UHGV virus genome: UHGV-0353264
DNA from: a virus
Reading direction: 5' to 3' (one strand)
Length of the DNA stretch: 43,216 nt
The notes beneath the pieces were generated by a model, which saw only the letters and a list, made by a program, of their open reading frames with translations, was not told the DNA's origin and made no database searches. The stretch's first letter is position 1; the number at the start of each line of letters is the position of its first letter. This document shows positions 40,276-41,343 of this stretch, in pieces. A program made the translations under genes and the position numbers.

Positions 40276-41343
40276 TTATTGAAATTTATCTCGGATGAAT
40301 TGCTGCGATGGTTTTTCAATGAATATATATGACATATAGCTAATTGCCATTAATGTAAGCATGAATAAAATGAATACATTGGGGCTGTAAAAAAGATCGC
40401 GTCCATAGCCAATCCTGTCAGCTAAATAAACAGCAATGATTTGCAAAGGAAAATGTAAAAGATAAGATGAATAACTGATATCACCCAACCATTCAATTTT
40501 CTTCCCAAAGTCGTTTCGCATTGCGCTAATTGATACAAGGAAAAATATTATGGAGGTAAATCCAAATAAAATAATTGAGAATATATCTGCTACTTGCAGG
40601 ATAAAAATAACTCCCCACGAGATTAATAGAAAAACACAAGCGAAAATAAAAAATGATTTTGTGCCAATATTTTTTATGAACGCAATCGTAATTTTATAGG
40701 TCAGACCACCAATAAAGAAAGAGAATGCGCCGATCATTATGGGATTGTTAATTTTGAAAAAGTAGTACGACAATGCAACTATTAAAATTGATATGAATGT
40801 TGTTTTTGATGTGAACTTGCATAATATAAAAAATATCATGTACATAAGTACTTCAATCGACACGGACCATGTCGGGGCGTTGAAGGACCAACCTCGCTCA
40901 AATCCCCATGATTGAATCATCAATAAATTCAGAATGGCATGGTAAATGTCATTCATAGGATAAACAAAAAAATAATTGTGACTTTTAAAGAAAATAATTT
41001 GTAATATTGCCACGACAGCAAATGTAAATATATAAAGTGGATATAATCTACTGACACGGTTAACTATAAAAGTTTTTGCTGAGGTTTTATTGCTGTGTAT
41101 ATTGTCAGCGTATAGATAAAAAAATATGAATCCAGAAATCATAAAAAACAATTCGACAGCATATAAACCGTAATGATAAAAGACGGAAAAAAATTCATAA
41201 AAAGGTTGGCGGTTTATGATTATGTCAGATGCAGCATTCTTTTTCATAAAAAAATGTTGCTAATGCCATAACACAACTGAAAGTGCGGCAAATCCTCTCA
41301 GAACATCCAGGGTATATATTCTTTTCCCAAAAACATTCGTCAC
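40276..41343 (-). pseudogene. Acyltransferase family 3 (OafA/Oac-like O-acetyltransferase) gene interrupted by an in-frame amber codon
   Basis: Frame from GTG 41343 encodes VTNVFGKRIYTLDVLRGFAALSVVLWH, then TAG at 41260-41262, then QHFF-MKKNAAS...GLYAVELFFMISGF... in the same frame (ORF 40276-41247). Both conserved N-terminal motifs and about 10 hydrophobic segments present; very AT-rich. Confidence 0.6.

Follow-up and report, generated by a model that had tools for sequence, protein, structure and literature searches.

Probable loss of function of a prophage-borne acyltransferase-3 gene in Escherichia coli through an amber codon at an invariant tryptophan position

Results

Locus and gene layout

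The DNA analysed is a virus genome of 43,216 nucleotides (UHGV-0353264), the whole of which is called the window here. It consists of a prophage of about 42 kb and short host flanks. Its landmarks and the features of the acyltransferase locus are as follows, with transmembrane helices abbreviated as TMH and the acyltransferase-3 family as AT3.

421-501: shoB, landmark of the host flank
695-955: yfhL, landmark of the host flank
1170-2567: integrase gene, landmark of the prophage
40021-43199: low-GC cargo block with the AT3 gene and two further open reading frames (ORFs), delimited by GC content
40276-41343, minus strand: whole AT3-only acyltransferase-3 gene, 355 codons plus stop, from its translation; RefSeq orthologues cover exactly the same span
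40276-41247, minus strand: residual ORF of 323 codons, which keeps TMH2-10 and the FFxISG and RxxR motifs and has lost TMH1 (ORF list, Pfam and structural model)
41245-41247, minus strand: first in-frame ATG past the stop (codon 33), an internal Met of the full-length protein, with no Shine-Dalgarno (SD) motif
41260-41262, minus strand: amber TAG, codon 28; the mutated base is window position 41261
41263-41343, minus strand: N-terminal fragment of 27 codons with most of TMH1, including R16-X10-H27 (translation, alignment and structural model)
41341-41343, minus strand: GTG start of the ancestral full-length gene; the RefSeq start is identical in IAI1, A37 and others, and the N-termini of homologues align there
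41350-41355, minus strand (read from 41355 to 41350): SD motif AAGAGG, with a 6-nt spacer to the GTG
43200-43216: 3' end of yfhH, landmark of the host flank

The prophage is 99.8-99.9% identical to those that E. coli IAI1 (NC_011741) and A37 (CP029327) carry at this site. Induced phages, for example vB_EcoM-606R2, have 74% of the first 25 kb of the window in common with it, at 96% identity; the common stretch carries the replication, lysis and packaging genes and does not include the acyltransferase region. A megablast search with the acyltransferase gene against 50,697 phage records gave no match, and the best match to a phage record by tblastn had an identity of only 39%. The gene is a phage-borne accessory gene, lying within a prophage that is bounded by the integrase and yfhH. 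It is found at the right end, just past the tail-fibre and tail-fibre-assembly genes. The coding sequence of 1068 nt has a GC content of 31.7%, and that of the cargo block (40021-43199) is 35%, compared with 50% in the prophage body. Low GC beside tail-fibre genes is typical of a cargo or "moron" gene.

The two other ORFs of the low-GC block also lie on the minus strand. One of them (41918-42565, 215 aa) had no match in Pfam, NCBIfam or PHROGs, and the other (42624-43055, 143 aa) had phrog_17793, a family without known function, as its only match. The AT3 gene and the adjoining tail-fibre-assembly gene move as a cassette (loci L003, L005 and L006 compared with L001, L002 and L004). Prophages with this cassette are found at no fewer than three chromosomal sites (by yfhH, by zinT and near tRNA-Pro/yejM) and differ in their baseplate modules (DUF2612/baseplate J versus YmfQ/StfP). 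The neighbour at the opposite end of the AT3 gene varies as well, with a LEM-3-like GIY-YIG protein encoded in place of the 215-aa ORF.

RefSeq treats the tail-fibre-assembly gene (39580-40020, plus strand) of IAI1, A37 and others as a pseudogene with an incomplete N-terminus. The ORF in the window has a TTG start and matches only positions 25-130 of the 131 positions of the Caudo_TAP profile, and thus the tail-fibre module of the prophage may be defective or mosaic. Elsewhere in the prophage, a TIR-domain gene (5749-6510), possibly a cargo gene with a role in defence, is adjoined by a gene for an ANR-family regulator (5507-5685); in IAI1 and A37, the latter carries a frameshift according to RefSeq. 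The window has no differences from IAI1 in the ANR/TIR region and is therefore in the same frameshifted state.

The 27 sense codons from the GTG to the TAG encode VTNVFGKRIYTLDVLRGFAALSVVLWH, and the stop is followed by QHFF and then by the ATG at 41247-41245. When the acyltransferase frame is translated through the TAG, it has 355 codons and no second internal stop. The duplex with the anti-SD sequence has an energy of -6.5 kcal/mol for the AAGAGG before the GTG versus -1.5 kcal/mol for the sequence upstream of the ATG at 41247, and no SD-like tetramer is present in the 18 nt preceding that ATG. Consensus scans for promoters and terminators around the gene revealed nothing convincing; shuffled sequence contained more promoter-like sites than the region itself, and terminator-like sites were absent. 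An earlier note on this DNA had described an aagagg ribosome-binding site, a GTG at 41343, a TAG at 41260-41262, QHFF and an ATG at 41247, and all of these coordinates hold on the minus strand. The note had also taken the ATG to be the annotated start; its position is right, but it is merely the first ATG past the stop, and the RefSeq orthologues start at the upstream GTG.

Protein family, motifs and structural model

The intact orthologue matches PF01757 (Acyl_transf_3) with 85.8 bits (cut-off 31) over profile positions 2-321 of 326, and the residual ORF matches it with 66 bits over positions 42-321 only. A search of 5.8 billion proteins yielded 2024 homologous matches; among the matches listed, proteins were mostly 355-390 aa long, and nearly all covered 97-100% of the query. 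NCBIfam gave no match for the acyltransferase, nor did a search of PDB sequences with a profile.

In 118 homologues with 38-85% identity, the residues D13, L15, R16, G17, A19, H27, W28, Q29, H30 and F32 are invariant. The stop replaces the invariant Trp28 within the signature LDxLRGxAAxSVVxWHWQHFF. The R16-X10-H27 motif (R16-GFAALSVVLW-H27) is encoded upstream of the TAG, and the stop cuts it off from the rest of the protein. Two further motifs, FFxISG (F66-F67-M-I-S70-G71, residues 66-71) and RxxR (R96-V-S98-R99, residues 96-99), are located downstream of the stop and are intact; F66, F67, S70, G71, R96, S98 and R99 are invariant in the 118 homologues. The 27 upstream codons thus lengthen the match to PF01757 and carry invariant residues, so that the alignment of the motifs goes beyond chance, and the view that a single stop parts two motifs of one gene proved to be correct.

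An AlphaFold model was built on the 118-sequence alignment, the first row of which is P0001 and not the IAI1 sequence. It has a pLDDT of 93.9 and a pTM of 0.92 and contains ten long helices (residues 10-32, 49-83, 89-122, 157-177, 181-194, 200-226, 228-249, 254-275, 290-311 and 321-354). The TAG codon falls inside the predicted TMH1 (residues 10-32). The fold is that of an AT3-only protein with ten helices and no fused SGNH domain, and the protein ends at residue 355. The sole confident neighbour of the model in the PDB was human HGSNAT (probability 0.98, TMq 0.43), a match that agrees with the TmAT superfamily proposed in PMC12423673.

Experimental work on OafA has shown how much depends on the R/K-X10-H motif of TMH1: the exchange R14A leaves 0.07% and the exchange H25A 0.33% of the activity. 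The motif residues have been argued to be fundamental to all AT3 proteins, for which FFxISG and RxxR were described too (PMC7448272). In simulations, the thioester of acetyl-CoA was placed beside the His of the TMH1 motif (PMC9833829). The TMH1 motif is conserved throughout the AT3 proteins (PMC7448272, PMC9833829).

The earlier identification of the gene as an acyltransferase gene is confirmed by the Pfam match, the R-X10-H, FFxISG and RxxR motifs and the ten-helix fold, which together place it in the AT3-only family. Its reading frame is interrupted by the TAG at codon 28. On these grounds, the locus is best regarded as an AT3 member by descent and, in the window, as a predicted pseudogene.

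Codon 28 in orthologous genes

A megablast search of 5426 complete genomes found the acyltransferase gene in 49 of them, spread over 51 E. coli records. In the six E. coli records sampled first, RefSeq has an intact coding sequence of 1068 nt with the same GTG, and the gene of E. coli IAI1 (WP_000185986.1) is given there as an intact protein of 355 aa with a GTG start. The earlier note had proposed to look for a sense codon at the position of the stop in orthologues. Codon 28 was read in 20 orthologous copies (eight loci from seven E. coli genomes and 12 IMG/VR contigs), and it is TGG, encoding Trp, in all of them. The sole difference between the coding sequence in the window and that of IAI1 is a G to A change at nt 83. 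Window position 41261 is T on the plus strand (A in the coding strand), and the orthologues have C (G in the coding strand). Since all of the more distant copies also have TGG, the TAG is the derived state.

The TAG itself was searched for in several ways. A 71-nt query centred on it had no 100% match among complete E. coli genomes. The query returned three of the 51 records, and the other records must differ from it at two or more positions in that stretch; the search rules out the TAG allele in a window-like background and does not amount to a reading of codon 28 in every record. Exact scans of genome, metagenome and viral contig collections with a 36-nt stretch bearing the TAG found nothing. 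When the middle base of the codon was left open, the 36-nt stretch was found in 12 viral contigs, with TGG in 12 of 12. The truncated product of 323 aa is absent from the gene-position index. The allele was seen in none of the collections searched and, among the sequences covered, is private to the genome of the window.

No true orthologue was found that starts at the downstream ATG and lacks the upstream motif. Two entries were considered and rejected. A protein of 324 aa (P0007; L021, 2904-3975) looked like an orthologue starting at the Met of window codon 33, but its start codon was miscalled in the public collection: the upstream frame of its contig is open from a TTG and encodes LDILRGLAALSVVLWHWQHFF, which includes WHWQHFF and the full TMH1 motif. 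A protein of 331 aa (P0004, 66 members) seemed to offer an alternative N-terminus and turned out to be a frameshifted allele entered from another frame.

The cluster of P0004, with its 66 member sequences, is frameshifted in the acyltransferase at both ends, and further broken alleles were encountered. One locus (L012) has a 7-bp deletion (coding nt 696-702), and another (L015) has two deletions of a single T (coding nt 151 and 372); the single-T deletions could be homopolymer sequencing errors. The same acyltransferase gene is broken independently in other strains, and the occurrence of several independent broken alleles suggests that this cargo gene is often dispensable.

Integrity of the remaining prophage

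The window and IAI1 differ at 97 positions, 68 of which are in the first 900 bp, that is, in the host flank. This flank (1-900, with shoB and yfhL) contains clustered substitutions and small indels and is far more divergent than the prophage. About 18 differences, the TAG among them, set the window apart from IAI1 and A37 alike, and they are spread evenly over the roughly 42 kb of the prophage. Fifty coding sequences annotated as intact in the IAI1 prophage were mapped on the window. The acyltransferase gene is the only one with a premature stop; in the other 49, length and stop codon are unchanged. The full length of these 49 genes and the even spread of the private differences argue that the stop is a solitary defect in a prophage that is otherwise well preserved, as opposed to a result of poor assembly or general decay.

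Relation to known acyltransferases and possible substrate

The closest known relative is WP_000185986.1, encoded by the IAI1 and A37 prophages by yfhH. Gene, prophage and chromosomal site are all shared with the window, and the coding sequences are identical but for one base; those copies are intact with TGG at codon 28, whereas the window copy has TAG. The Oac-type enzymes of Shigella flexneri serotype-converting phages such as Sf6 (Oac, Oac1b and OacB-D) are likewise AT3-only proteins of about 330-360 aa with ten transmembrane helices. They have the R-X10-H, FFxISG and RxxR motifs in common with the product of the window gene and are also cargo of temperate phages or prophages (PMC9558356). 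Their relatedness to the window protein, judged from the PHROG matches, is at the family level only, and their hosts are Shigella, whereas the host of the window gene is E. coli, with the prophage of its closest relative in IAI1. OafA and OafB of Salmonella have a fused AT3-SGNH architecture; they are alike in the AT3 fold and in the R-X10-H motif of TMH1 with its essential Arg and His, and OafB is also prophage-borne (BTP1). In contrast to them, the window protein lacks both an SGNH domain and an 11th transmembrane helix and ends past TMH10.

From its context, an O-antigen or another surface polysaccharide is a plausible substrate, and the serotype-converting role named in the earlier note is likewise plausible. 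The assignment to the O-antigen is supported by three observations. First, the protein matches PHROG 3333 "O-acetyltransferase" with an E value of 9e-40, and phrog_6705 "O-antigen acetylase" with 3.6e-8 only. Second, a Serratia homologue with 46% identity (L022, L023) lies at a corresponding position, next to Mu-like baseplate and tail-fibre genes. Third, a Xanthomonas homologue with 42% identity (L024, L025) is located inside an O-antigen cluster of the Wzm/Wzt (ABC-transporter) type, together with genes for glycosyltransferases, sugar-nucleotide epimerases, a methyltransferase and a GtrA-like protein. The assignment is made less firm by the absence of an NCBIfam model and of any phage record with more than 39% identity, and AT3 proteins modify many glycans besides the O-antigen (PMC9558356). 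The presence of homologues both in a chromosomal O-antigen cluster and at the tail end of a Mu-like prophage suggests that the gene has been captured repeatedly by phages.

Discussion

The locus very probably represents a recent TGG to TAG loss-of-function allele of a prophage cargo gene. In this reading, a single G to A transition has turned the codon of the invariant Trp28 into an amber codon in one genome. Translation from the GTG at 41343 would then end after 27 residues, inside TMH1, no functional enzyme would be made, and the acylation of a surface glycan that the prophage presumably confers would be lost in the lysogen. Recent nonsense inactivation was one of the readings given in the earlier note, and it is favoured by the TGG in 20 of 20 orthologues and by the fact that IAI1 differs at that base only.

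It should be considered whether the TAG is an error of sequencing or assembly and the real gene has TGG and is intact. In favour of this, the allele is a singleton that is absent from every collection searched, and the gene differs from that of IAI1 by just one base. However, the change is a substitution outside any homopolymer, and errors in assembly consensus sequences are mostly indels. G to A transitions are the commonest spontaneous mutation, which also counts against an error. In addition, none of the other private differences of the prophage disrupts a gene, and their even distribution looks like real divergence in a clean assembly. An error is therefore regarded as unlikely.

The earlier note had offered amber suppression or downstream reinitiation as an alternative to inactivation, and this is not borne out: the stop is not conserved, the window contains no tRNA gene and the ATG has no SD motif. 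A full-length protein with reduced but real activity could be produced with the help of a host amber suppressor tRNA or by natural readthrough. The frame past the TAG is wholly undamaged, and the base that follows the stop is C; UAG-C is a weak termination context in E. coli. The allele would then be leaky, and a little full-length enzyme would be made by near-cognate readthrough of UAG-C or by a host suppressor. Nevertheless, a very recent mutation would in any case have left the frame past it undamaged, and the presence of the stop in no orthologue argues against a conserved, programmed feature. ARAGORN found no tRNA gene in the 43 kb of the window, a result that applies to the window and not to the host chromosome. 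Moreover, natural isolates seldom carry suppressor alleles, and basal readthrough is in the range of a percent or less. Because Trp28 is invariant, a Gln, Tyr or Lys inserted in its place may itself be harmful. A leaky allele is thus very improbable; if it were nevertheless present, a low, partial acylation of the surface glycan would mean a quantitative attenuation of the lysogenic-conversion trait.

Reinitiation at the ATG of Met33, 12 nt past the stop, to give a functional protein of 323 aa can scarcely be credited, despite the proximity of the ATG to the stop and the 66-bit match of the ORF that follows to PF01757, because the ATG is not preceded by an SD-like tetramer and its upstream region has the weaker anti-SD duplex, the product would be devoid of TMH1 with R16 and H27 (invariant here, with equivalents that are essential in OafA; PMC7448272), the loss of one helix would presumably disturb the topology of the nine that remain, and no true orthologue starts at Met33, the one apparent example being the miscall P0007.

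The preferred reading, recent nonsense inactivation, does not involve an unusual event. Premature stops in oac1b have been documented in Shigella flexneri strains without the matching serotype (PMC10132075, the ShigaPass paper); a paper on oac1b (PMC3630932) contains no precedent for a nonsense allele. In view of the documented oac1b stops and of the independent disruption of the same E. coli gene elsewhere, the locus is an ordinary pseudogene, in which an accessory gene that already has an annotation carries a routine loss-of-function allele, and not a case of unusual decoding.

The importance of the finding beyond correct annotation is slight. The locus should be annotated as a pseudogene (W28*), and not as a 323-aa "acyltransferase" that starts at the internal ATG. 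If the intact enzyme acylates the O-antigen or another surface glycan, the isolate would differ from its IAI1-like relatives in that modification. Such a difference at the cell surface could affect phage adsorption, and it could mislead the prediction of surface phenotypes from genome sequences, as has been reported for the nonsense alleles of Shigella oac1b.
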